DNA of 64,000 nucleotides from Caldora sp. (GTDB lineage: Bacteria > Cyanobacteriota > Cyanobacteriia > Cyanobacteriales > Coleofasciculaceae), in NCBI GenBank assembly GCA_965222765.1, contig CBDCVG010000043.1:161053-225052 (forward strand). Direction: 5' to 3'. The notes beneath the pieces were generated by a model. That model saw nothing but the letters and a program-made list of their open reading frames with translations. It had not been told where the DNA came from and did not search any database. The position numbers and the translations under genes were made by a program. This document shows, one piece after another, positions 10,333 to 23,682 of this stretch; position 1 is the stretch's first letter; every line of letters starts with the position of its first letter.

Positions 10333-10631
10333 TCTTGCTAAATTTATATAGTTGGGATCCTCTTCAATAAGCACTAAGGGCAAAGCGGTGTACCACTTTA
10401 CCTGCACCGAAGACCTAATATATGCTTCGGTTACCACTTGGAAAAAAGTTGCGGTTGTCAGGAATCTAGTACAAGAAGGCTCCAATGCAGAAGACTGTAA
10501 TGTTTATGGTATCTGCTTTTTTGCCTATCGTTAAGAAGCTTGATTATTTCCACCGTACTGCACTAGATAGCCACCTTGTAGCCTTATTGAGCGAGTCATC
10601 TGTTTATACCCTTACAAAACCCTTATTGTTG

Positions 10632-12245
10632 ATGAAATTTTCCTACGAACTTTCAACAGCTTTGCTTGGTGCAGCAGCAATCATACTGGTGCAACCTCAA
10701 ATCACTCTAGCTTTGACAGCTTCGGAGGTTAATGCTATTGCTGAAAAGATTACTGTATTGATTGCGCAAGAGGAACAACAAGTTGCTTCAGGAGTGATTG
10801 TTGGCAAAGAAGGAAATACTTATTTTGTTTTGACTAGTCAACATGTAGTACAAACTGAGGGTCAGTACCAGATTATGACTCCTAGTAATGCTAAACATTC
10901 TGTTAACTACAGCAACATTATCAAATTACCTGGGATTGATTTAGCTATCTTACAATTTATTAGCCCAAACATTTATCAAGTTGCTACCTTTGGTAATTCC
11001 AGCGAAGTAATTGTGGGTTCTCCAGCTTATATTTCTGGGTGGCCAAAACCTGGTTTTGCTCTCCAAGATGAAGCACCAATTCGTCTTTTTCACTCTGGAC
11101 AAATTTCAGCTCGTCAACCTCTCAAAGATGGTTACGAGTTAATCTATACTACCCCTACTCGTCAAGGAATGAGTGGAGGACCGGTGCTCAATGAAAATGG
11201 CCAGCTGATTGGTATTCATGGGCGTACTGATTTACCTACCCTAGAAACAGATCCCAAGCCTTGGGGAGTTAATTTAGGTATTCCCATCAACACGTTCATT
11301 GAATTAGCTCCTAGTCTTTATACTGAACAAGGAGAAATCAAGCTCAAGGCGCAAGCTTACCAGGAAGCCATTGCCTATTTTAACCAGGTACTAAAGTTTA
11401 ATCCCAACTCTGCTGCTGCCTATAATGGGCAAAGTTATGCTCATTTTGCTCAGACAGGGTATGAGGAATCTATTCAGAAGGCAACCCAAGCAATCAAGAA
11501 TAACCCTAAATTAGCTGAAGCTTACCTCATCCGGGGGGCTAGCTATGCTCAGCAAGGAAGTCACCGCCAAGCAATTGAGAATTTTAACGAAGCGATCGCA
11601 ATTAATTCTCGTTTTGCTGATGCCTATGCTTTGCGAGGGGTAAGTAAGGCAAAAATAGGGGATTCTAATGGAGCTTATAAGGATGTTGAACTGTCTCTTA
11701 AACTAGCTCCTAAAAGTTCTATTGCCTACATCTGCCTTAGCCAAATTCACTCCCTTGTTGGCTACAGGATAGGTGCAGGGGAGGCTAGTAGGATTGCAGA
11801 TGAACTCTTAGATACTTCTAGGGAGATAAATCCTTATCAAATGACGCTCAATCAAGTACTGGAAAGCCGTTTACTTCAAGATCTTGTTGTACAGACAACG
11901 CCAACTTCTTCTAACCCTCAGACAGCAGTAAATCCAGGAAATGAGTACTATACCAACACCATTAATCTAGTTGAGGCTTGCAAGTCTTATGATGACTCGC
12001 CTCACCAAAATGAGGCACTGCTGTGGCTACAAGATCAAATCCCTAAGTCTACTCTCAAAACATTTACGATGATGTGGCGACTGCAACTCATCTTTGACAT
12101 GGATAAGGAGCCGATGGAGCTCGTTAACGTTTGTCAGCATTATGAGGGTAAGGAACACCAAGATAAGGCTTTAGAAAGGCTACAGACTCGAATTAACCAG
12201 GTAACAATTATTGAGTTTGCCCAAAGGTGGTTCCAAACTCAGTAA
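10632..12245 (+). CDS. Secreted trypsin-like serine protease with TPR repeats and a C-terminal domain of unknown function
   Basis: Signal-peptide-like start MKFSYELSTALLGAAAIILVQP. The protease motifs are VLTSQHVV and GMSGGPVLNENGQLIGIHG, followed by about four TPR units. An alternative upstream ATG lies at 10485. Confidence 0.75.
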   Translation: MKFSYELSTALLGAAAIILVQPQITLALTASEVNAIAEKITVLIAQEEQQVASGVIVGKEGNTYFVLTSQHVVQTEGQYQIMTPSNAKHSVNYSNIIKLPGIDLAILQFISPNIYQVATFGNSSEVIVGSPAYISGWPKPGFALQDEAPIRLFHSGQISARQPLKDGYELIYTTPTRQGMSGGPVLNENGQLIGIHGRTDLPTLETDPKPWGVNLGIPINTFIELAPSLYTEQGEIKLKAQAYQEAIAYFNQVLKFNPNSAAAYNGQSYAHFAQTGYEESIQKATQAIKNNPKLAEAYLIRGASYAQQGSHRQAIENFNEAIAINSRFADAYALRGVSKAKIGDSNGAYKDVELSLKLAPKSSIAYICLSQIHSLVGYRIGAGEASRIADELLDTSREINPYQMTLNQVLESRLLQDLVVQTTPTSSNPQTAVNPGNEYYTNTINLVEACKSYDDSPHQNEALLWLQDQIPKSTLKTFTMMWRLQLIFDMDKEPMELVNVCQHYEGKEHQDKALERLQTRINQVTIIEFAQRWFQTQ

Positions 12246-12428
12246 TTTAAGGTGTTAGGTGTTAGGTGTTAGGTAATGGAATTGAGAAGTGATTAGAGCC
12301 TTGAAGCTACAAGGAAAGCTATTAAGGAAGAGAGTAAATCTAAAATCTAAAATCTCAATGACGCATTTAAATTGGTTTATCTTAATCTCCGCATCCCTAC
12401 ATTTCTCCGCCTCAGCACAATTTACAAT

Positions 12429-12707
12429 TTAAATGCACAAAAGCTTATAGGCAGTTTCCAGTGCTGATCTGTGTTTAAAGCCTCTAGAGTTATCCGAAAC
12501 TTTATAGCGGAAGGAGTGGGAGGCTCCGGTACGCTCAAAAACCCCTAATCGATGGAGCATAGGAACTAACCGCCTGACGCTATGGGTATTCACTTTTGTT
12601 ACTTGTGCAATTTCCTCCAGATTCAGCCACTGAGAGGATTCCTTAACGCCAGCATAAACTCGAATTAAATGGGGAAGTTGGGGCTGCACTTTGTTGACAT
12701 CTTTCAT
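12429..12707 (-). CDS. Small putative winged-helix/HTH DNA-binding protein
   Basis: 92 aa with the HTH-like segment LNLEEIAQVTKVNTHSVRRLVPMLHRLG. It is on the same strand as, and immediately downstream of, the NB-ARC gene. Confidence 0.4.
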   Translation of the reverse strand: MKDVNKVQPQLPHLIRVYAGVKESSQWLNLEEIAQVTKVNTHSVRRLVPMLHRLGVFERTGASHSFRYKVSDNSRGFKHRSALETAYKLLCI

Positions 12708-12828
12708 TAAACTTCCTTGAAATTTAATAAATTTTAAGGAAGAGTCTAACGAGTAGTTGTGAAAAAAATGTGAAAATCTAAGGACAAAAGATTAAAAAGC
12801 TTACCCTACAAGCATTCTGCCTTCTTAC

Positions 12829-12941
12829 ACTAGTACAGCGCGGCAGAAGTAACTAACCAGTTTGAGATCGATAGAATCCTTACTCTATAAGCATTCTTAA
12901 TTCTTAATTCTTAATTCTTAATTCCGCGCAGCGGTACTAGT
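12829..12941 (-). mobile_element. MITE-like element, copy 2 (113 bp, inverted orientation): TIRs ACTAGTACCGCTGCGCGG / CCGCGCTGYACTAGT flanking 4x AATTAAG
   Basis: The reverse complement is ~92% identical across its full length to 20742..20854. It ends 5 bp after the NB-ARC gene stop codon. Confidence 0.8.
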
Positions 12942-12946
12942 CTCGA

Positions 12947-15076
12947 TTACGAGATCAGAAACAGCACAATTAAGGAGATTGCGATCGCTAACATCAAAGT
13001 ACCTAAAATGATATCTCCTAGGTGATACTCATGGGGAGTTGCTTTCGTAGATTGTACTTTATCTCCCTTATCCTCCCATCTCCCCATCTCCGTGTCAGGT
13101 GCGTCTCGCGTCTCCGCGTCTCCATTAATCTCCCTATCTACTACATTTACTTGCAACTCTGTATGAGGGGTTTCAGAAGTTATATCCTGCATTGACTCTA
13201 GCCATTCTGCTACCCGTTGAGCTTCTGATAACTCCGGTTTCAGTTTAGTGAGGGCTTCTCGCCATAGAGCAACAGCTTTGTGTTTGTTGCCCTGTTGTAC
13301 ATAGAGAATACCCATATTGACTAGAGTTTGACCTTCTTTGTTAATATCTCCTAGTTTTGTGAAGCTGCCTAGGCTCTGTTCGTAACAATCCCTAGCTTTA
13401 AGCCAATCTCCTTGCTGGGAATAGATATTAGCTAGATTGCCCAAACTCATCGCTTCTGCATGAGAGTCTTCCAACTCCCTGAAAATGCTTAGACTCTGCC
13501 CATAGCGCTCGATTGTTTTCCCCCAATCTCCTTGCCTAAAATAGACTTTACCCAGGTTAGTTAAGGTTTGAGCTTCTTCTTGGGTATTGCCTAGCTCGCG
13601 GGTTGCTTCCAAAGCCCACAATTGAGTCCGTTCCCAGTCAGCCAAGTAAGCACGGATATCAAAAAAGTTAACTAAGCTCTTGGCAAAGGGAACTACTATA
13701 TCCCATGCTTGAGCTTGGTAAGCCCATTCTAAAGAAGCTAACAAGTTGCTGCGCTCAGTCTCAAACCAGTTTAAGGCTGCCGCCAGCAAGTGTGGCTCAA
13801 TAGCTTCTATAGATTGGTGGTTCAAGACTTTCGTGAAATTCTCTGAATTCTCAAGATACCAGCGTGCCACCCTCAAACGAGTTGCTTGCCGTTCCTCTAC
13901 TAGCTCCTCTTGAGCCAATTGCCCTCGGGCAAAAGAGCGCACCAAATCGTGGAAACGGTAGCGCTCCCTTCCAACAGGCTCCAACAGTTGCCTCTCAACT
14001 AGATAATGTACAGATTCCTTGGCGACAGCTGGCTCAACATCTAACAAGGAAGCAGCTAAGGGGAGCGTAAAGTTAGGTCCGGTTAACAATCCCAGTAAGC
14101 GAAACAGGCGAGCAGCAGTTGTATCGAGCTCCTGATAGCTGAGAACAAGGCTAGCTCGTACATCCAAATCGCTCAGGTACAGTTGTGCTAGTCGTTGCTG
14201 CTCATCAGCAAGTTGATGTGTGTATTCTGCTAGTTCCCAGTTTGGTTGATTTCGTAGAGTATTACCAGTGATGCGGATAGCTAGGGGTAGCCCATTGCAA
14301 AGATTGATCAAGTTTTTGCTTGCTTCCAGTTCAGCCTGAGAGCGTTCTACTCCTACCAGATCCCGTAGCAGAGCCAAGGCATCTAGTTCCGTCATCACTT
14401 CTAAGTCAACGACAGTAGCTTCCCTTAGATTCTCAAACTGTTTGCGCGTTGTAACTAGGACTCCACAAGTGGGACTATTTGGTAGCAAAGGCCGTATCTG
14501 AACCTCATCCCGAGCATTATCCAGCAGTACCAAAGCTCGTTTATCTGAGAGCAAGGAACGGTAGAGTTCAGTTCTCTCTTTGAGAGTTTCAGGTATCAAA
14601 TCGTCTTCGATACCCAAGACTCGCAAAAAACTAGCTAACACTGCCAATGGCTCCTGGCTCTGGCTCTCACTTCCCCTGAGATTGATGTATAGTTGAGCAT
14701 CTGGAAAATACGACTGTAGTTGATGGGCAATGTGGATAGCAAGAGTTGATTTACCGACTCCTGCTATACCAGTCAATGTACAGAGCTTAACAAGGCTCTC
14801 GCCTTGTAAGGCAGAAGGAAAGAGTCCTTCATCCTTCTTCAAAGTGGGGTCTTTTTCTTTAAGCTTTGGTGTTGCCTGTTGCAAACAAGCTTTCACCTGC
14901 TCTAATTCTGCTTGGCGACCTATAAAGTTGGCAATATCAGAAGGGAGCTGATGTATGGATGTAGGCTGAACTAAGGTACTTTCAAACAGCTGCATGACTT
15001 TTTTATTGTCACCAGCTACCACGCCTTCTACTAAATCGTGAAAAATTAGTTTGTACTTTGGTCTATCTTCAGCCAT
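12947..15076 (-). CDS. NB-ARC (STAND) ATPase with TPR repeats and a C-terminal transmembrane anchor
   Basis: The P-loop is GIAGVGKSTLA and the Walker B-like motif is LVLLDN. There are about five TPR units (...NLGKVYFRQGDWGKTIERYGQSL...). The C-terminus ends ...LGDIILGTLMLAIAISLIVLFLIS (a single TM helix). Confidence 0.8.
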   Translation of the reverse strand: MAEDRPKYKLIFHDLVEGVVAGDNKKVMQLFESTLVQPTSIHQLPSDIANFIGRQAELEQVKACLQQATPKLKEKDPTLKKDEGLFPSALQGESLVKLCTLTGIAGVGKSTLAIHIAHQLQSYFPDAQLYINLRGSESQSQEPLAVLASFLRVLGIEDDLIPETLKERTELYRSLLSDKRALVLLDNARDEVQIRPLLPNSPTCGVLVTTRKQFENLREATVVDLEVMTELDALALLRDLVGVERSQAELEASKNLINLCNGLPLAIRITGNTLRNQPNWELAEYTHQLADEQQRLAQLYLSDLDVRASLVLSYQELDTTAARLFRLLGLLTGPNFTLPLAASLLDVEPAVAKESVHYLVERQLLEPVGRERYRFHDLVRSFARGQLAQEELVEERQATRLRVARWYLENSENFTKVLNHQSIEAIEPHLLAAALNWFETERSNLLASLEWAYQAQAWDIVVPFAKSLVNFFDIRAYLADWERTQLWALEATRELGNTQEEAQTLTNLGKVYFRQGDWGKTIERYGQSLSIFRELEDSHAEAMSLGNLANIYSQQGDWLKARDCYEQSLGSFTKLGDINKEGQTLVNMGILYVQQGNKHKAVALWREALTKLKPELSEAQRVAEWLESMQDITSETPHTELQVNVVDREINGDAETRDAPDTEMGRWEDKGDKVQSTKATPHEYHLGDIILGTLMLAIAISLIVLFLIS

Positions 15077-15159
15077 AGATTGCTCCGTTAGCTTGTTGCT
15101 CCCACATAAAACTAATAGCTATGGAATTTCTCAATAAATTGCAAAAATGCTATATCACT

Positions 15160-15696
15160 TCAGGCATTACCAGGAATCAAAAGCTCCATTGAAGTCATGA
15201 GAGTACTAAGTACAGAGGTTCTAAGATTAGGATTAACTATCACAATGGGAGGGCGATTACTCTCACTTACATAACCTAACTGGAGCGTAATTTCTTCTGA
15301 AGACAAGGCTCCTGAACAATCCATATGGGTTAAACCAATAATCATCGGTATTTCTACTCGCTGTTCCATAAACGAGAGAATTGAGCGAGCATAGGGGAAA
15401 TCATCAGGTCGATGAGCTGCTACCAACAGGATATAAGTCTGAGCATCTTGAATCAAAATATCCCACATGAAATCAAAGCGGGATTGACCTGGAGTACCGT
15501 AGATATGTAAATCAATATCAGGACCAAATGTAACTTTACCAAAGTCGAAAGCAACTGTGGTCTCTTCCTTATCTATGGATATTTCATCAGTAACAGTTCG
15601 TTCTATTTGTACAACTTCAATTTCACTGGCAGTTCGCACAAAGGTAGACTTTCCTGCTCCAACAGTCCCTGTTACTACTAAACGCATATTTTTCAT
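15160..15696 (-). CDS. Roadblock-associated small GTPase (COG2229 / conservon CvnD-like), copy 1
   Basis: The P-loop is GTVGAGKST, the switch II motif is YGTPGQ, and the NKxD equivalent is THMD. It is ~60% identical to the protein at 16313..16948. Confidence 0.75.
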   Translation of the reverse strand: MKNMRLVVTGTVGAGKSTFVRTASEIEVVQIERTVTDEISIDKEETTVAFDFGKVTFGPDIDLHIYGTPGQSRFDFMWDILIQDAQTYILLVAAHRPDDFPYARSILSFMEQRVEIPMIIGLTHMDCSGALSSEEITLQLGYVSESNRPPIVIVNPNLRTSVLSTLMTSMELLIPGNA

Positions 15697-15849
15697 GACA
15701 TTTTGCTCCGAAAAAATATTTGTTATTGGTTGTTTGTCTCAGCGTTAGTGTAGATATTTAAGGTAGATAGTGAAATAAACAAATAACCAACAACAAATCA
15801 CAAATACTTACTGCTACTATGGTTTCGATAGACAAGTAGCAAGGCTTAA

Positions 15850-16221
15850 CTAAGCTAATGCCGGCTTAAGCTCGGTAACAGTGCGTTTAATTTCTAACAT
15901 CAGCACTCCCTGCTTTGCTGCTTTACCAGCTAGTACGAGAAAGACTGCATCTTCACCACAACTAGTCAAAATGCTAAAGCCTTCATTACCCTCAACATAG
16001 ATGCGATCAATTGCACCCCGGACAAGTTCCTTTCCAATACGTTCCCCTAAAGAAAGCATAGCAGCCGACATAGCTGATACCCGTTCGTCATCCATACCAC
16101 CAGGTAAACTGGAGGCTAAGGGCAAACCATCAGGAGTAACCATTGCTGCTCCCTGAACATCACTAGTGCCAGTGACAAAGCTTTGTAATATCTGTCCAAG
16201 TTTTTCAGAATTGATTGCCAT
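15850..16221 (-). CDS. Roadblock/LC7 (MglB-like) domain protein, copy 1
   Basis: 123 aa reading ...GAAMVTPDGLPLASSL...AMSAAMLSLGERIGKEL...FLVLAGK..., a typical Roadblock fold sequence. It differs from 17344..17715 at only 2 of 123 residues. Confidence 0.8.
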   Translation of the reverse strand: MAINSEKLGQILQSFVTGTSDVQGAAMVTPDGLPLASSLPGGMDDERVSAMSAAMLSLGERIGKELVRGAIDRIYVEGNEGFSILTSCGEDAVFLVLAGKAAKQGVLMLEIKRTVTELKPALA

Positions 16222-16312
16222 AATTGTGTTCCTACTTTAATTAAATTGAATATTTATTTTTATCAAAAATTAGATGATTTTTTGACAAAAATCAATTAGA
16301 GATTTAGCTATT

Positions 16313-16948
16313 TTAAAAATCTCGTGACAAAGATCTTGTGGATAATTGATAGGAATGTTTTGTCTGAGACTGAGCTGCTTGACTAACTGCTCGCCTCGTT
16401 ATCAATTGCTCAAAATTACATTGAGAAAGCATCAGAGCCATCGAAGCCATAACAGCTTCAATTACTGAATGTTTATCCCTAGGATTTACTCGCACAAACA
16501 GGGGTTGTTGTAACCTATTGATATAGCCCAGATTTAACATTATTTCTTCTGGAGCCTTTGCTTCTGGATAATCCATATGGGTTATACCAATAACCATTGG
16601 GATTTTGACTCGCTGATTCATAAACGTAATAATCTGACGAGCTTGGCGGAAATCATTGGGGCGGTGGGCTGCTACTAGCACAATATAAGTGTGAGCTTTT
16701 TGGATCAAAAAATCCCACATAAAGCTAAAGCGAGATTGACCGGGAGTGCCATAAATTTGTATATCCATGGCAGAACCAAATGAAATGCGACCATAGTCGA
16801 AGGCAACAGTAGTTTTTCTCTTAAGCTGGGCTGTTTCATCGGTAGCAGTGCGTTCTGTACTGATAGCTTCAATTTGACTAATTGTCTGCACAAAGGTAGA
16901 CTTTCCAGCTCCTGGAGTGCCAGCTACAACTAAACGCATAGTTTTCAT
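16313..16948 (-). CDS. Roadblock-associated small GTPase, copy 2, with a ~30-aa C-terminal extension
   Basis: The motifs are GTPGAGKST, YGTPGQ and THMD. The tail QCNFEQLITRR...SRDF is absent from copy 1. Confidence 0.72.
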   Translation of the reverse strand: MKTMRLVVAGTPGAGKSTFVQTISQIEAISTERTATDETAQLKRKTTVAFDYGRISFGSAMDIQIYGTPGQSRFSFMWDFLIQKAHTYIVLVAAHRPNDFRQARQIITFMNQRVKIPMVIGITHMDYPEAKAPEEIMLNLGYINRLQQPLFVRVNPRDKHSVIEAVMASMALMLSQCNFEQLITRRAVSQAAQSQTKHSYQLSTRSLSRDF

Positions 16949-17343
16949 TTGATTCTGCTCCGAAAGATTATCTAAAATTCATCCAACCAAATTAACTCGG
17001 TAACTAGGGAATTTTACATGGGGGTTTTAAACCTCCATGTAAAACCTAGTATCTATAGAAATGGAGAGCTCTTACTCCTAATGCTAATAACTAAAAAAAT
17101 GTTAACTATCAACCGTTAACTATTCACTGTTGAGACCATGCACCAATACTGAAATCTGGCAGAATCTTTGCCTATACCTAACCTAATTGAACTGATGGTA
17201 GTTACTGCATCAAACTTGAGCAATCAAACCTGTTAAGATGCATGGTAGTTCTACGTCAAGTCCACCTTAAATTCACTCTGATGACCAGATAATTGCTAAT
17301 TAATCGTTCCTCGATTAACCTACAAACAATTGGCTAGATTTAA

Positions 17344-17715
17344 CTAAGCTAAAGCAGGCTTAAGCTCGGTAAGAGTTCGCTTAATTTCTAACATTAGCAC
17401 TCCCTGCTTTGCTGCTTTACCAGCTAGTACTAGAAAAACTGCATCCTCACCACAACTAGTCAAAATGCTAAAGCCTTCATTACCCTCAACATAGATGCGA
17501 TCAATTGCACCCCGAACCAGTTCCTTTCCAATACGCTCTCCTAAAGAAAGCATAGCAGCTGACATAGCTGATACCCGTTCGTCATCCATACCACCAGGCA
17601 AGCTAGAGGCTAGAGGTAAACCATCAGGAGTAACCATTGCTGCTCCCTGAACATCACTAGTGCCAGTGACGAAGTTTTGTAGTATCTGTCCAAGTTTTTC
17701 AGAATTAATTGCCAT
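17344..17715 (-). CDS. Roadblock/LC7 (MglB-like) domain protein, copy 2
   Basis: ~93% nt and 98% aa identical to 15850..16221. Confidence 0.8.
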   Translation of the reverse strand: MAINSEKLGQILQNFVTGTSDVQGAAMVTPDGLPLASSLPGGMDDERVSAMSAAMLSLGERIGKELVRGAIDRIYVEGNEGFSILTSCGEDAVFLVLAGKAAKQGVLMLEIKRTLTELKPALA

Positions 17716-17799
17716 TGTTGTATTCCTGCTTATTCCTACTTGAATTTCAGTTAGTGGGATCTGGTTGAGTTGTATACCTTGAAGCTAGCAAACTGAGAT

Positions 17800-18354
17800 T
17801 TACATAGTATTTGCACCAGTTTTGATCAAACGCCTGAAAAGACCTTCAGTCCAACCAGTTTCTCGGAGAACAGCAGCTGAACTAACTTCTACGTAAGCTT
17901 GCTCAATGAAAGCTAAATCAATCATGCAAATTCTGCTTAAAGCATCAAGCAATTCTATAGGTTTGCCATCTACTTTTAGTTGTTTGCGAGCTTCATTAAT
18001 TACGGTTGCCATTGCTGGCACAACGTGTTGAGGTCCAATGCCAATTTGTACATGTACTAAACCAATGCGCCAACGACGATCAGCATAAGAATCACCCCAT
18101 TCATCCATCCCATTGAACATTTCGGCAAACCATTGAACAAAGGTTTCCCGTAGGCGATGCATACGTCCTTCTTTTTCATTCAAAATAGCGCTCATTTCTG
18201 GATCGCGACCCAAGTAAGCATAAAAATGATCTGCCATTTCTGGAGCAATTTCTTTACCCCAATCGAGATTAGATTTTAGGATTTCTTTGTCTTCTGCGGT
18301 AAAAGCAACACGCTTTTCCATTGTAGTCATAAAATCATGAGGATTTAAGGACAT
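17800..18354 (-). CDS. Single-domain protoglobin / globin-coupled-sensor-type globin (no output domain)
   Basis: Contains HRLRETFVQWF...YADRRWRIGLVHVQIGIGPQHVVPAMATVINEA, the sensor-globin signature. The ATG is at 18354; an upstream TTG is at 18381. Confidence 0.7.
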   Translation of the reverse strand: MSLNPHDFMTTMEKRVAFTAEDKEILKSNLDWGKEIAPEMADHFYAYLGRDPEMSAILNEKEGRMHRLRETFVQWFAEMFNGMDEWGDSYADRRWRIGLVHVQIGIGPQHVVPAMATVINEARKQLKVDGKPIELLDALSRICMIDLAFIEQAYVEVSSAAVLRETGWTEGLFRRLIKTGANTM

Positions 18355-18959
18355 ACATCTCCTTCTTGTATCAAAAAGCAATCAAGTTCATTTCATTTCT
18401 AACAATTTAATATGCTACTGTCTAGTTTTATTTTGACATTTTGTTTAAATTTAAGAAAAATATTTTTTTTGTTTTTAGAGTAATTTAGTTTTTTTTTTAA
18501 AGAGAAATTAAGATTGTCGAATTAATTAAAAATGTATTAATTGTAACAATTTAAATTAATGATTTTTACCCTAAAATCTTTTTCTATCCAAATAAGTGCA
18601 AGGAAAAAGCGTCATGAGACTCAAAAGATGAGCACAAATGATGAAAATCTACCTTGTGAATCATGGATAATCACTCCGGAACTGTTGCCTGTTGCCTGTT
18701 GCCTCTCGTCACAACCCGACTTATTCAGCAAGCCCTACTTAAATTATCGCCAAAATGCTTGACCCCTACTGTCCCCTAAAACTGTTTTATCTTTTCAAGA
18801 ATTATTCAGTTCTATCCGGATGGTTTGTCAATGTATTGTTTTTGTATTTCGAGTGGGAGCAAACCTATATTGAATAAGAGTTTTCACGATTATGACTGCC
18901 CAATCCCTCAAGGAATGGGCTTCCCGCCGCTTTTGGTGAGAATTGGCACAGTAATAGAT

Positions 18960-19205
18960 TTATTTTTTATGCTTTTGTGACTGATGCTCCTCAAACAGAG
19001 GCTTAACTTCCCCAGCAACCTCTTCTAACGCGGAGAGTCGCTGCTCAATTTCTTCCAACCTCTGTTGAGAAGATGACATTCCTAGGTAGCTTCTTAGAGC
19101 CGCAATCACTATATCTGACTTAGACTGCCCGGTTTGTTTCATCCGAGCTGCGATCGCTTCATTCAGCTCAGGAGATATTCTGACACCAAGGAATGGGTTA
19201 GCCAT
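18960..19205 (-). CDS. Ribbon-helix-helix (CopG/Arc-like) protein; possibly an orphan antitoxin
   Basis: Reads MANPFLGVRISPELNEAIAARMKQTGQSKSDIVIAALRSYL, followed by a coiled-coil tail. Confidence 0.5.
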   Translation of the reverse strand: MANPFLGVRISPELNEAIAARMKQTGQSKSDIVIAALRSYLGMSSSQQRLEEIEQRLSALEEVAGEVKPLFEEHQSQKHKK

Positions 19206-19811
19206 AGTATCAGTTCCATAATTGTTCTAGAGATGATAACAGTAGAAGATAACAACTAGATGATAACAGTAGGTAGTCAGGACAAAATCAACTGTGACAA
19301 TTAATTAATTAATGCTAAAGTCACAACTCACTATGTTGTCACAAATGGTTGCTCAATCCTACACATACCAAGTTGTTCGGTATTTAGACGGGATACTTCA
19401 ATTCTCTCAAAGGGAACAGGGGACAAGGAAAAAAATAGGGAATATCCAATTTAAATGCAGATTATTTTACCCCTAACTTGAGGTGGAAACGTCTTAAACT
19501 ATGGTTGTCAGTTCGAGCTAGAGCCTTAAAAAAAGGAAAATAAACGTTATCATAATGATAACAAAGATCAATTAAAAGCAAATATATGGTGTGGCTGTAA
19601 TCAATGAATGACAATGGTTTCCGCTTCTTTACCCTAAAAAATAGTTGCTCACTTACTCTAGTATTCTTCCGCACAAATCAAAATGGGTTTTCTGGGAGCA
19701 AGATGTTATATCTGTATATCTGAATCTGCTGCGATCGTCCACCAGCTCAAGTCAACAAATGCTGATTGACCATTTTATTTACATAAATTCACTAAGGAGT
19801 ATTGATTAAAC

Positions 19812-20549
19812 GTGGAAAACCACACAGAAAAAATCCTGGTGGTAGACGACGAAGCCGCCCTCCGGCGTATTCTGGAAACTCGCCTTTCGATGATTGGTTA
19901 CAATGTAGTCACTGCTGCGGATGGTGAAGAGGCACTTCTACTTTTCTCTGAGGAAGCACCTGATTTGATAGTCTTAGACATAATGATGCCCAAGTATGAT
20001 GGCTATTATGTGTGTAAAGAAATAAGAAAAAAATCTGATGTGCCCATCATTATGCTAACTGCCTTGGGAGATGTCGCTGATCGAATCGCTGGTTTGGAAC
20101 TCGGAGCAGATGATTATCTCGTAAAACCATTTTCACCCAAAGAGTTAGAAGCTAGGATTGCTTCTATTTTGCGTCGGTTTAAATCTACCATCACTTCAGA
20201 TTTCATCAGTTCTGGAGAGATTCAAGTTGGTGCATTGCATATCAATACTAACAAACGACGAGTTGCTCGAGGCAATGAGCAAATTCGGTTAACGGGCATA
20301 GAATTTGATTTGCTGCAACTGTTAGTTAATCACTCAGGTAAACCGGTTTCCCGTGCCGATATTTTGAAAGCAGTTTGGGGGATAACTCCCATCTGTCATA
20401 GTGATTTGCGGATTGTTGACGTTCACATCTCTCGCCTGCGAGCCAAAATTGAACAGAACCCCAAGCAACCAGAATTTATTATTACCGCTCGTGGAACAGG
20501 CTACTTATTTCAGCGCATGGCTGAACTCGTAGAACCAGCAAGAGCTTGA
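19812..20549 (+). CDS. OmpR-family response regulator (RpaB-like)
   Basis: The receiver domain is MENHTEKILVVDDEAALRRILETRLSMIGY...DVPIIMLTALGDVADRIAGLELGADDYLVKPFSPKELEARI and the winged helix is VDVHISRLRAKIE...ITARGTGYLF. GTG start with an AAGGAG 12 nt upstream. The N-terminus closely matches RpaB, but the C-terminal half diverges. Confidence 0.85.
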   Translation: MENHTEKILVVDDEAALRRILETRLSMIGYNVVTAADGEEALLLFSEEAPDLIVLDIMMPKYDGYYVCKEIRKKSDVPIIMLTALGDVADRIAGLELGADDYLVKPFSPKELEARIASILRRFKSTITSDFISSGEIQVGALHINTNKRRVARGNEQIRLTGIEFDLLQLLVNHSGKPVSRADILKAVWGITPICHSDLRIVDVHISRLRAKIEQNPKQPEFIITARGTGYLFQRMAELVEPARA

Positions 20550-20854: not shown

Positions 20855-21138
20855 TTAAATGTGTCTTAGTTTACCAATTTCCAATTCGCAATTCCCAATT
20901 CGCAATTTAATAATTCCCAATTTAATAATTCTCAAGTTAGGATATGAGGAGTAGCTAGCAGTAGTGAACATTACTCAGGCCAGACCTGTGTTCTTTAGGA
21001 ACACAGATATTTTTGGTCGCATGCTTACCTTTTGATTACCCCACCAACAATATTCTCAACATTGGCAGGGTAATACTCTTCATATCACTGGGACATCTTC
21101 TCTTTGGAAGCAACTAACCTCAATTGGAGAGATTATTT

Positions 21139-23682
21139 ATGCAAGCAGATGGCTTACCTATTAGTCCACAAGTTATGGACTCCACAGATGCTATCAAGTC
21201 TGCTATTACCAACAACTTTCCCATCGTTGCTCCTGATATACCTCTTATTGATGCTCTGAAACTTATGAGTCAGGAGGGGACAGCTCTTAATAATGGTAGA
21301 GCTCGACCCTTAAAAGTGCCTAGCAATCCCACGATCCCCTCATCTTTAGCAGGATGTAGTTGTGTCTTGGTAGCACAAGATAAACAACTTTTGGGGATAA
21401 TTACTGCAGCAGATGTGGTGCAATTGGTAGCTACAGGAAAGGAGTTAGAGAAATTTGCGATCGCTGAAGTGATGCAGCCATTGGTTATCACTTTGAAGCA
21501 ATCAGATTTACCAGCTCCTAGAGCAATCACGTCTTTATTTTATCAGCACCAAATCTCCCATATACCAGTTTTGAGTGATCACGGAGAAGTGGTAGAGATT
21601 ATTACTCCGGAAAATCTTCTGTACCAAACGGCGGAACACCAGCAAGCGGAAGAAGCTCTCTCAAAAATCAACCAACAGTTAGAAAACAGAGTAGAAGAGC
21701 GAACAGCAGTTCTTTCTTCCACTGTTGAGCAATTCCAACAAGAGATACACCAACGCCAACAGATAGAAAAGGAACTCCGCAAGAGTCAGATACTCTATCA
21801 AGGTATTGTTGAAGATCAAACGGGATTGATCTGCCGTTTTTTACCCAATGGCACGATTACCTTTGTTAATCAAGCCTACTGCGATTATTTCCATAAGCAG
21901 CCAAAGGAAGTGATTGGCTACCAGTCTTTACATCTAATGCCAATAGAAAACTCACCTCTGTTGGCAGATATAATTGCTGCTGTAAGTCCTGAAAACCCAG
22001 TCTTTAGGGCACAATATCAGGTTACTTTACCTACGGGTAAGATGGGTTGGCATCGGTGGACTATTCGTGCCTTCTACAATAGCGAAGTGGAAAGCGCTAA
22101 TGTTCTTGAACCAACTTGCTTGTTTAAATTACAGGCAGTAGGTTGGGATATAACCGAATCAAAGCAAGTCGAGCAGGTACTCCGCGTCAGTGAGGAACGT
22201 TATCGGTTGTTGGCAGAAAACTCCACTGATCTGATTTCTCGTCGTGATTTGACAGGGGTTTATCTCTACGCCTCACCAGCCTGTCGTACTCTACTAGGTT
22301 ATGAACCGGAAGAATTAGTGGGATTATCTAGTAACGACTTGATTCATCCCCAGGATTTGGAACATGCTCAGCAATGCCGAACCAATATTCTTCAAACACA
22401 AGATAATTGTACTAGTTCCTACCGCATCAGGAAAAAAGACGGCAGTTATATCTGGTTTGAAACTACTAGTAAAACAGTAATTGATCGAGATACTGGTGCA
22501 CCCAAAGAATTTGTCTCAGTCTCCCGAGACATCACTGAACGCTACCTCTCACAAGAGCGTATGCGTTTGTTTGAGTCAGCAGTTACCAATGCTAACGACG
22601 TGATTCTGATCACTGACGCAGATACTATTAATGGTTCTGGACCGAGGATTGTGTATGTTAACAAAGCCTTTACTCAGATAACTGGTTACTTAGCAGAAGA
22701 AGTGATTGGGAGGACACCGCGCATCCTCCAAGGTCCCAAAACAGACCGCAGCCAATTAAATAAAATTCGGGCTGCTATCCTTAAGAAGGAACCAGTTCAG
22801 GCAGAGTTAATCAACTACTCTAAAGACGGTTCTGATTACTGGATAGAACTAAATATCGTTCCCATTGCTGATGAGCGGGGGCAGTTTACTCATTTTGTTG
22901 CCATACAACGGGATATTACCAAACGTAAACAAGCCGAAGCGGAAATGCTCAAAGCACTAGCAAAGGAGCGAGAACTAAACGAGCTGAAGTCTCGCTTCAT
23001 TGCTATCACTTCCCATGAATTCCGTACTCCTCTTGCCACTATCCTTTCTTCTGCCGACCTATTAGAGAAATTTCCCTGTACAAAAGCAGAAAAGCAGGGG
23101 CTGTTTAATCAAATTCAAACCTCTGTCAAGCATATGACTCGGCTTCTAGAAGATGTGCTGTTTGTAACCCGTTCGGAAGCAGGAAAACTAGAGTTTAAGC
23201 CTACCCAGCTTGATCTGACGCAATTTTGTAGTGCTCTAGTCAAGGAAGTAGAAATTGGTTTAGGCAAATACCACCGACTATATTTTACGAGTTGTGGTAT
23301 TTGCAGCGGCTTCATGGATGAAAAACTACTCCGTAGCATTCTCACTAATTTGCTTACCAATGCTATTAAGTATTCTCTCCAAGGTAGTAGAGTCAAAGTG
23401 AGGCTCGCTTGTGAGGATGGGAAAGCGATCTTTCAGGTTGAAGATGAGGGCATCGGTATTCCTGTTGCAGATCAACAACATCTATTTGAAAGCTTTCATC
23501 GAGCCAGCAACGTTGGCAGTATTTCGGGCACTGGGCTAGGATTGACCATTGTCAAGAAATGTGTGAAGTCCCACGGGGGAAAAGTTGCTGTGGAAAGTCA
23601 GGTGGACAGGGGCACTACTTTTACTGTCACACTACCAATGAATTATGAACCATCAAAACAAGAAAACTATTCTGGTGATTGA
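21139..23682 (+). CDS. Sensor histidine kinase with an N-terminal CBS pair and multiple PAS domains
   Basis: The H-box is ITSHEFRTPLATI, with a complete HATPase_c region (N, G1, G2 boxes: EDEGIGI, GTGLGLTIVKK). There are three PAS-like segments. GGAG lies 9 nt upstream of the ATG. Confidence 0.85.
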   Translation: MQADGLPISPQVMDSTDAIKSAITNNFPIVAPDIPLIDALKLMSQEGTALNNGRARPLKVPSNPTIPSSLAGCSCVLVAQDKQLLGIITAADVVQLVATGKELEKFAIAEVMQPLVITLKQSDLPAPRAITSLFYQHQISHIPVLSDHGEVVEIITPENLLYQTAEHQQAEEALSKINQQLENRVEERTAVLSSTVEQFQQEIHQRQQIEKELRKSQILYQGIVEDQTGLICRFLPNGTITFVNQAYCDYFHKQPKEVIGYQSLHLMPIENSPLLADIIAAVSPENPVFRAQYQVTLPTGKMGWHRWTIRAFYNSEVESANVLEPTCLFKLQAVGWDITESKQVEQVLRVSEERYRLLAENSTDLISRRDLTGVYLYASPACRTLLGYEPEELVGLSSNDLIHPQDLEHAQQCRTNILQTQDNCTSSYRIRKKDGSYIWFETTSKTVIDRDTGAPKEFVSVSRDITERYLSQERMRLFESAVTNANDVILITDADTINGSGPRIVYVNKAFTQITGYLAEEVIGRTPRILQGPKTDRSQLNKIRAAILKKEPVQAELINYSKDGSDYWIELNIVPIADERGQFTHFVAIQRDITKRKQAEAEMLKALAKERELNELKSRFIAITSHEFRTPLATILSSADLLEKFPCTKAEKQGLFNQIQTSVKHMTRLLEDVLFVTRSEAGKLEFKPTQLDLTQFCSALVKEVEIGLGKYHRLYFTSCGICSGFMDEKLLRSILTNLLTNAIKYSLQGSRVKVRLACEDGKAIFQVEDEGIGIPVADQQHLFESFHRASNVGSISGTGLGLTIVKKCVKSHGGKVAVESQVDRGTTFTVTLPMNYEPSKQENYSGD

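Follow-up and report, generated by a model that had tools for sequence, protein, structure and literature searches.

Introduction

In the Mgl system of Myxococcus and Thermus MglA, a GTPase of the Ras-like kind, is regulated by a dimer of the Roadblock protein MglB, which sets the state of MglA (PMC13408092). MglA-GTP is described in a passage of PMC7668184 as acting through the TPR protein SgmX. In the conservon (AGPS) of the Actinomycetota, which comprises CvnA-CvnB-CvnC-CvnD and includes the mycobacterial mfp operon, a Roadblock/LC7 protein and a Ras-like GTPase with a GTPGQ motif are encoded in one operon with a dedicated histidine-kinase-like sensor, CvnA, and with the DUF742 protein CvnC, a putative guanine nucleotide exchange factor (GEF). 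CvnB is thought to set the state of the GTPase (PMC13621833). Here we describe a block of six genes in which Roadblock/LC7 and GTPase genes lie between a sensor globin and an NB-ARC/TPR protein. The block occupies positions 12947-18354 of a stretch of 64,000 nucleotides from Caldora sp. (Coleofasciculaceae; assembly GCA_965222765.1, contig CBDCVG010000043.1, positions 161,053 to 225,052), which we call the window. We take the block to be the form that a wider cyanobacterial signalling module has in this lineage: a haem-gated small-GTPase switch akin to MglA/MglB and the conservon, from which it would differ in sensor and output. We give this reading a probability of roughly 0.55 and judged it likelier than each of four alternatives, which are weighed below where the evidence on them appears.

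Within the MglA family, a GTPGQ G3 motif and a Thr replacing the Arg finger define groups 2-5, which include the conservon CvnD and whose partner Roadblock carries an Asp-Gly pair (PMC4316618). Citing Makarova 2006, that survey notes that genes for MglA/MglB homologues occur next to PATAN genes; it makes no mention of globins (PMC4316618). PATAN is found in PixG, PixE and LsiR, PatA-type (PATAN-REC) proteins that regulate phototaxis in cyanobacteria; in Synechocystis it binds PilB1 and PilC and suffices to switch phototactic orientation (10.1101/2021.06.11.447907). Among haem proteins, the globin-coupled sensors (GCS) HemAT, AfGcHK, GsGCS, BpeGReg and DosC carry their output domain (methyl-accepting chemotaxis protein, kinase or GGDEF) in the same polypeptide as the globin. 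HGbRL of Methylacidiphilum infernorum is a globin fused to a Roadblock/LC7 domain and is proposed to pass ligand binding on to that domain; the genome also has, at another place, paired genes for an MglA-like GTPase and a Roadblock protein (PMC4476040).

Results

Architecture of the block and comparison set

The block had been singled out in an earlier description of the window (the original prediction). As it stated, the open reading frame (ORF) table shows six genes, all on the minus strand; they do not overlap and fill the interval exactly. The domain calls made for all six proteins were confirmed by Pfam above the gathering thresholds. The order from 5' to 3' is sensor globin, Roadblock-1, GTPase-1, Roadblock-2, GTPase-2 and NB-ARC/TPR, with the globin at the 5' end and two Roadblock/LC7 plus small-GTPase pairs behind it, again as predicted (Table 1). 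The spacers, in the same order, are 84, 395, 91, 153 and 83 bp. Thus four are short, as had been claimed, and the one between Roadblock-1 and GTPase-1 is not.

To place the block we used a scan of relatives with one genome per species, which found 305 relatives; the best 80 loci were fetched and compared by tblastn and ORF clustering. Together with the window these 80 other genomes gave 85 globin genes. Loci are cited below by number (L001 and so on) where they need to be told apart.

A single-domain sensor globin with conserved haem-pocket residues

An ATG start gives the globin the length of nearly all its orthologues, the start in the ORF table being a TTG at 18381. The protein scored 76.3 bits against PF11563 (cutoff 25) and contains the motif RIGLVHVQIGIGPQHV, which includes the proximal His101. 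Its best match in the PDB was the orthologue 8H17 (Tlr1989, E=1.5e-79), entered as 'Globin domain of Thermosynechococcus elongatus BP-1' and released 2023-04-26, which we take to be a characterised haem protein. The next matches were the sensor domains of AfGcHK (6.7e-11), GsGCS (9e-10) and HemAT (7e-5). An AF2 model (predicted local distance difference test, pLDDT, 89) gave Foldseek template modelling (TM) scores of 0.95 to 8H17, 0.84 to both AfGcHK and GsGCS, and 0.82 to HemAT, and was 66% identical to 8H17 in the structural alignment. Tyr45, Thr71 and His101 align with HemAT Tyr70 (B10), Thr95 (E11) and His123 (F8). We found Tyr-B10, Thr-E11 and His-F8 to be invariant in 85 of 85 orthologues; a lack of the proximal His and haem-pocket residues was what the original prediction had named as evidence that would tell against it.

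The globin had been called a protoglobin, the term under which T. elongatus NP_682779 was catalogued among bacterial globins in 2006 (PMC1457004). This was right as to the Pfam Protoglobin/GCS model and the sensor type, but not as to the strict Methanosarcina acetivorans protoglobin (Pgb) type. The similarity to M. acetivorans Pgb is weak (E=0.003-0.07 over residues 10-102, TM 0.64-0.68), weaker than that to the GCS sensor domains, and the globin has only ~20 residues ahead of the first core helix, where strict Pgb has a haem-burying N-terminal extension. A strict-sense protoglobin identity was therefore rejected. Since both sequence and structure are closer to the GCS sensor domains than to M. 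acetivorans Pgb, we assign the protein as a single-domain S-family sensor globin, predicted to bind haem. It shares with the GCS proteins and Tlr1989 the 3-on-3 sensor-globin fold, Tyr-B10 and His-F8. Unlike the GCS proteins it is a stand-alone globin, and the output partners presumed for it are encoded by genes of their own.

The C-terminal ~25 residues of the globin are near-invariant (E165, T166, G167, W168, L172, F173, R175, L176, T179, G180 and A181). This tail is of low confidence in the AF2 model, and the 8H17 chain has 157 modelled residues only. It is a candidate partner-docking element.

The globin could instead be no input at all, acting as an enzyme or buffer (NO dioxygenase, O2 scavenger) or as a target of the GTPase, which would control where the globin is located or how active it is. 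Many lineages that carry the module are nitrogen fixers and have to cope with O2, which would suit an enzyme or buffer. A passage of PMC4020757 moreover reports enzymatic activities, nitrite reductase among them, for single-domain globins and protoglobins. However, the closest relatives found here are GCS sensor domains rather than flavohaemoglobin-type enzymes, no reductase partner is encoded nearby, and the module is also present in the non-diazotrophic Thermosynechococcus. We regard this role as quite improbable.

Two Roadblock proteins and two GTPases of the GTPGQ type

In a PDB profile search Roadblock-1 matched 7F8M (1e-21) and CvnB5 (3LEQ, 1.2e-9), whereas no MglB structure was matched at E<=1. 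A TPDG motif is conserved in the Roadblock protein. The two copies differ at 24 nucleotides; of the codons affected, 22 are changed synonymously and 2 non-synonymously. Their flanks are unrelated. The excess of synonymous changes together with the unrelated flanks indicates that both copies are under purifying selection and do not stem from a fresh duplication. In several NCBI records of Symploca metagenome-assembled genomes the 123-aa Roadblock is annotated as 'diacylglyceryl transferase'. This label is likely an annotation error, and it would keep the module hidden from keyword searches.

GTPase-1 carries the motifs GTPGAGKST (G1), TTVAFD (G2), YGTPGQ (G3) and ITHMD (G4). GTPase-2 has the same G1-G4 motifs, and the two proteins are 57-60% identical. 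Across 96 GTPase homologues G1 reads GT(V/P)GAGKST, G2 K-T-T-V-A-F-D and G4 (L/I)-T-H-x-D, a THxD without Lys, while G3 Y-G-T-P-G-Q is invariant. The GTPGQ, the TT and the TPDG of the Roadblock are all present, the set that marks MglA groups 2-5. The intrinsic Arg finger beside the G2 Thr and the TVPGQ of group 1 are not found, G2 being K-T-T-V and G3 G-T-P-G-Q. The GTPase profile matched only Arf, Arl8 and KRas in the PDB and does not discriminate between an MglA and a CvnD affinity. In a crude neighbour-joining tree GTPase-1 grouped with the ~211-aa globin-proximal GTPases of Coleofasciculaceae; the same tree does not establish orthology of GTPase-2 to the NB-ARC-proximal GTPases of other families.

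The globin-Roadblock-GTPase linkage is conserved across cyanobacteria

Conservation of the gene order in relatives had been put forward as a check on the original prediction, and we found the order globin-Roadblock-GTPase in most of the 80 other cyanobacterial genomes. Roadblock adjoins the globin on the same strand for 76 of the 85 globin genes, and a GTPase of the same family lies <=3 kb from the globin for 72 of them. Most of the nine exceptions to Roadblock adjacency lie at contig ends, belong to tandem globins or reflect artefacts of ORF calling. The linkage was seen in Coleofasciculaceae, Leptolyngbyaceae, Nodosilinea, Crocosphaera, Pseudanabaena, Thermosynechococcus and Nostocales, and the genes flanking the module are entirely different between lineages.

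The module occurs in three layouts. One, with the order globin, Roadblock, GTPase and PATAN, is that of Leptolyngbya, Nodosilinea, Crocosphaera, Pseudanabaena, Crinalium and Oculatellaceae. In Nostocales (Calothrix, Rivularia, Richelia, Westiellopsis, Mastigocoleus) it is reversed to PATAN, GTPase, Roadblock and globin, with no NB-ARC gene. In Symploca, Coleofasciculaceae, Allocoleopsis and Potamolinea, and also in some Leptolyngbyaceae and Elainellaceae, the globin, Roadblock and GTPase are followed by a variable number of units of a 161-aa protein and a Roadblock, then by a GTPase and NB-ARC/TPR. The original prediction had placed the host among the Nostocales; the closest genomes are instead those of Symploca (98% globin identity in L001). 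One Thermosynechococcus genome, which encodes a globin 97% identical to Tlr1989, has the genes for globin, Roadblock, GTPase, PATAN and hemerythrin in this sequence, separated by 63, 35, 27 and 13 bp.

From these data the conserved core of the module is a single-domain sensor globin, predicted to bind haem, a CvnB/MglB-like Roadblock/LC7 protein and a Ras-superfamily GTPase with GTPGQ. It could be argued that these genes are neighbours by inherited synteny only, with no functional coupling. The link between them is read from sequence, one spacer measures 395 bp, and some relatives lack one or another member. Against this, the adjacency has outlasted a full reversal of order, the insertion of extra genes, tandem duplication of the whole globin-Roadblock-GTPase trio (L010, L012) and the distance between orders, while the flanks all differ. 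This favours functional coupling over mere inherited synteny, which we consider very improbable.

Several further observations were made at these loci. In some Coleofasciculaceae two globin genes, or two whole trios, occur within one 20-kb locus (L010, L012, L016, L018), the copies being ~70% identical. Hemerythrin (PF01814, 3e-14 and 4e-11), a second type of O2- or NO-binding protein in the same cluster, lies directly after PATAN in Thermosynechococcus (L088:10512-10922) and in five Nodosilinea/Leptolyngbya loci (L062, L063, L067, L068, L080). The 161-aa protein has no Pfam assignment and alternates with Roadblock in arrays of up to seven pairs (L083:8000-20200, Coleofasciculus chthonoplastes PCC 7420). 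It was also found at L034, L036, L037, L071, L085, L086 and L087, and is not in the window. A V4R identity was not confirmed for it, the Pfam matches being below threshold (E=0.08 and 0.17) and a PDB profile search returning nothing. The protein is a possible alternative sensor acting on GTPases of this family. Upstream of the module, Coleofasciculaceae, Lyngbya and Waterburya have a conserved gene set (L006, L008, L010, L012-L014, L020, L083, L085, L086) that begins with a partner-switching trio (an HATPase_c_2 anti-sigma-kinase-like protein, a phosphatase of the REC-SpoIIE type and a STAS protein), followed by an FAD oxidoreductase and an epimerase; it is not in the window. One contig binned as 'Candidatus Sericytochromatia' (L015) encodes a globin 78% identical to that of the window, and its Roadblock and GTPase show identities typical of cyanobacteria. 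Wrong binning of a cyanobacterial contig is the probable explanation, rather than presence of the module in a non-photosynthetic organism.

The fourth component is either PATAN or NB-ARC/TPR

We found PATAN at 33 loci, including Thermosynechococcus, and NB-ARC/TPR at 19, including the window; no locus has both. No PATAN or V4R-like gene was found in the whole 64-kb window. PATAN and NB-ARC/TPR are therefore alternative fourth components, PATAN being the partner in most cyanobacteria and NB-ARC a lineage variant. The C-terminal ~60 residues of the PATAN protein (L067:11906-12889 and others of the module) gave faint matches to DUF742 (CvnC; E=0.2) and to winged helix-turn-helix (wHTH) domains, which are not significant, and a DUF742 identity is not supported. 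If real, the resemblance would bring the module nearer to the conservon. The PATAN protein of the module shares its domain with the PatA-type regulators, but it has no receiver domain.

The original prediction of a tail-anchored STAND ATPase directly downstream of the GTPase was upheld. The protein has an NB-ARC domain (66 bits) and TPRs (TPR_12, 94.6 bits), and matched an NCBIfam AfsR-like core at 1e-111, below cutoff. Walker A and B motifs are present, with GIAGVGKST and LVLLDNA in the sequence. The best 19-residue Kyte-Doolittle window, 2.94, begins at residue 690 of 709, and by hydropathy a hydrophobic C-terminal tail is common to 13 of 17 NB-ARC orthologues. Hence it is predicted to be a tail-anchored membrane protein. 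At the N-terminus there is a conserved motif of ~45 residues. Pfam returned no match that could be an N-terminal effector domain in residues 1-90, and no nuclease, protease or TIR-like effector domain in the protein.

Comparison with the conservon, Mgl and HGbRL

The block resembles the conservon in having a CvnB-type Roadblock and a CvnD-type GTPase (GTPGQ, no Arg finger) together with a dedicated sensor, in the match of Roadblock-1 to CvnB5 and of the GTPases to PF03029, as CvnD-type GTPases do, and in having several copies per locus (PMC4316618, PMC13621833). It differs in that neither a CvnA-type kinase nor a DUF742 protein is in the same-strand block, an absence the original prediction had pointed out and which Pfam bore out, DUF742 matching no protein of the window. 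The sensor is a soluble haem globin by prediction, PATAN or NB-ARC/TPR are extra partners, and the phylum is Cyanobacteria. The only kinase near the block is divergent, paired with an OmpR-type regulator, and not a CvnA-like member of the block.

The likeness raises the alternative that cyanobacteria have in this module their own equivalent of the conservon, in which the globin replaces CvnA and the output is the regulation of genes, such as those for development or secondary metabolism, rather than motility. The greater closeness of the Roadblock to CvnB5 than to any MglB in the PDB, the PF03029 and GTPGQ features of the GTPase, the faint C-terminal match in the PATAN partner and a small wHTH-like ORF after the NB-ARC gene in the Symploca clade are all consistent with it. 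The two missing conservon components, the insignificance of a match at E=0.2, and the experimental tie of PATAN to the pilus motor and not to transcription are not, and we consider this alternative unlikely.

As in the Mgl system, a Ras-like GTPase goes with a Roadblock protein, and SgmX, as presented in the passage of PMC7668184 noted above, is a precedent for a TPR-bearing effector. The window GTPases differ from MglA of group 1 in lacking the intrinsic Arg finger beside the G2 Thr, in having GTPGQ and not TVPGQ, and in G4 THxD; the Roadblock matched no MglB structure, and Mgl has no known globin. By analogy, HGbRL is the nearest precedent for haem-to-Roadblock signalling. HGbRL, however, is one fused polypeptide confined to one verrucomicrobial genus and not next to a GTPase, and its globin is flavohaemoglobin-like (Tyr-B10, Gln-E7, site-swapped dimer) and not of the S family. 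The different globin family and arrangement indicate that the combination of globin and Roadblock arose independently.

Spacer hairpin and surroundings of the block

The 395-bp spacer (16949-17343) contains a perfect palindrome, TTTTACATGG...CCATGTAAAA, which is predicted to fold as RNA at -22.3 kcal/mol (z = -4.8) and lies ~65-95 nt upstream of GTPase-1. It is single copy in the window, and the Symploca relatives L001, L003 and L004 have kept it. A canonical terminator would have a U-tract behind it, which is missing here. When 12300-19900 was scanned for promoter and terminator consensus sequences, there were fewer sites than in shuffled sequence and nothing usable, and an Rfam search of 12000-20000 gave only a chance plant-miRNA match (E=0.07). 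The 92-aa ORF downstream of the NB-ARC gene has only a weak Pfam match (Dimerisation domain, 6.6e-4, below cutoff). The loci where it was found after that gene, L001, L003 and L004, are all of the Symploca clade. Upstream of the block lie a ribbon-helix-helix (RHH) ORF, an OmpR-type regulator and a CBS-PAS histidine kinase, which adjoin it only in the Symploca clade (L001-L004). The convergent trypsin-like/TPR protein downstream of the block was not found beside the module elsewhere.

Bacterial conflict systems often include STAND proteins of the NB-ARC/TPR type, and the block could be a STAND-centred, NLR-like defence unit in which the NB-ARC/TPR protein senses and executes an anti-phage or self/non-self response, the other genes being regulators or neighbours. 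The antitoxin-like RHH ORF upstream and the neighbouring protease, with its matches to PADLOC models (Table 1), fit with this. PADLOC, however, assigned no defence system to the core genes: it gave nothing for the globin, the Roadblocks or the GTPases and only a generic TPR match for the NB-ARC protein. Many cyanobacterial orders have the globin-Roadblock-GTPase core with no NB-ARC, most often with PATAN, the NB-ARC protein carries none of the effector domains named above, and nothing in its base composition sets the block apart. We give a defence unit little credence.

Table 1. Genes and other features of the block and its surroundings, with positions in the window
Feature	Position	Strand	Details
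Single-domain S-family sensor globin	17800-18354	-	184 aa; PF11563 3.5e-21; candidate haem-based gas/redox sensor
Roadblock/LC7 protein 1, CvnB/MglB-like	17344-17715	-	123 aa; Robl_LC7 1.1e-14; candidate GTPase regulator, likely globin contact
Palindrome/hairpin in Roadblock-1/GTPase-1 spacer	17013-17043	-	RNA fold; possible RNA element or operator
Ras-superfamily GTPase-1, long paralogue, globin-proximal	16313-16948	-	211 aa; ATP_bind_1 2e-16 + Ras, Roc, Arf
Roadblock/LC7 protein 2	15850-16221	-	123 aa; Robl_LC7 1.1e-14; 2 residues differ from copy 1
Ras-superfamily GTPase-2, short paralogue, NB-ARC-proximal	15160-15696	-	178 aa; ATP_bind_1 4e-14 + Arf, Ras
STAND NTPase NB-ARC/TPR, C-terminal anchor	12947-15076	-	709 aa; NB-ARC 4e-18, TPR_12 4e-27; candidate membrane-bound effector/scaffold
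92-aa ORF, possibly winged-helix	12429-12707	-	239 bp downstream of NB-ARC gene; block membership uncertain
RHH (CopG/RelB-like) ORF	18960-19205	-	81 aa; 600 bp upstream of globin
OmpR-type regulator	19812-20549	+	divergent, upstream of block
CBS-PAS histidine kinase	21124-23682	+	divergent, upstream of block
Trypsin-like peptidase + TPR	10485-12245	+	586 aa; Trypsin_2 1.4e-21; protease part vs PADLOC models RT-Protease 5e-13, LmuA 2e-10; convergent, downstream of block

Discussion

The linkage described above suggests that the globin is an input to the GTPase switch. In the scheme that we propose, whose contacts, direction of signalling, ligand and output we infer, the haem of the globin would bind O2, NO or CO, or shift its redox state, and the resulting conformational change would pass in trans to the Roadblock dimer, possibly via the invariant tail (residues ~165-181). 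An altered GTPase-activating or GEF-like action of the Roadblock would then alter the GTP/GDP state of the GTPase, and the GTP-bound form would engage an effector. In most cyanobacteria this effector would be the PATAN protein encoded alongside. Since PATAN attaches to the motor of the type IV pilus in Synechocystis, the likely output on the PATAN side is control over surface motility or over polarity. The Symploca/Coleofasciculaceae lineage has a duplicated Roadblock/GTPase pair, and the NB-ARC/TPR STAND protein with its predicted membrane anchor takes the place of PATAN. In the window itself the TPR array might, by analogy with MglA-GTP and SgmX, bind the GTP-bound GTPase, and NB-ARC might oligomerise at the membrane.

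Several observations weigh against the reading of the block as a haem-gated GTPase switch. The 395-bp spacer with its conserved hairpin means that a single transcript is not assured, and a GEF-like (DUF742) component was not found in the block. No effector domain can be recognised in the NB-ARC protein, which makes the output the weakest step in the window. The closest relative, L001, keeps only a 23-aa remnant of Roadblock-2, which is missing in L003. L058, L059 and L075 are the only globin loci with neither Roadblock nor GTPase, and there are Roadblock/GTPase clusters without a globin (L086, L087). When the sampling was reversed, with the GTPase as the starting point, Lyngbya aestuarii was seen to have the globin, and an Allocoleopsis cluster had only the 161-aa protein, Roadblock and GTPase. 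In the Waterburya-like metagenome locus L086 the synteny upstream and downstream is kept and the globin is gone, which suggests a lineage-specific loss; an uncalled gap of ~1 kb (L086:6358-7428) lies at the expected globin position. Globin-less clusters and partner-less globins together show that the coupling is not obligatory. The globin would thus be an accessory input rather than an obligatory part of the module.

With these points weighed, we still prefer the reading as a haem-gated switch. We also put forward, more tentatively and short of an even chance, a general proposal: that single-domain sensor globins signal in trans, haem ligation acting on a Roadblock dimer and through it on a Ras-like GTPase. 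Such a gas-gated G-protein switch might, via PATAN, steer the polarity of type IV pili and so the O2- or NO-guided movement of mat-formers, and might in Symploca/Coleofasciculaceae control the assembly of a membrane-anchored NB-ARC/TPR hub.

The original prediction knew of no earlier description of this combination of genes. Our full-text searches, whose scope leaves out most subscription journals so that an earlier description is possible, likewise found no account of a globin-Roadblock-GTPase module in cyanobacteria. Searches of the same literature for 'Tlr1989' and '8H17' returned no paper, and none that links the Tlr1989 family to Roadblock/GTPase genes. Each part of the module was already known. 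What appears to be new is the sensor on a bacterial small-GTPase/Roadblock switch and, in the lineage of the window, the STAND-type partner.

For bacterial MglA/MglB and conservon modules the input signals are mostly not known, and neither is the signalling route of stand-alone sensor globins, which lack an output domain. A conserved operon that joins the two offers a candidate partner for each. Tlr1989 has already been crystallised, and Thermosynechococcus, which is genetically tractable and motile, has a compact five-gene cluster, so that the hypothesis is directly testable. If true, the exchange of PATAN for a tail-anchored NB-ARC/TPR protein would place a STAND NTPase downstream of a Ras-like GTPase, which would be unusual in bacteria. 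The lineages that bear the module are for the most part benthic mat formers, exposed every day to shifts from O2 supersaturation to anoxia and back, and a haem-based behavioural input would suit such conditions. Our data suggest that the module is a so far undescribed route by which an O2, NO or redox signal is passed to a molecular switch.

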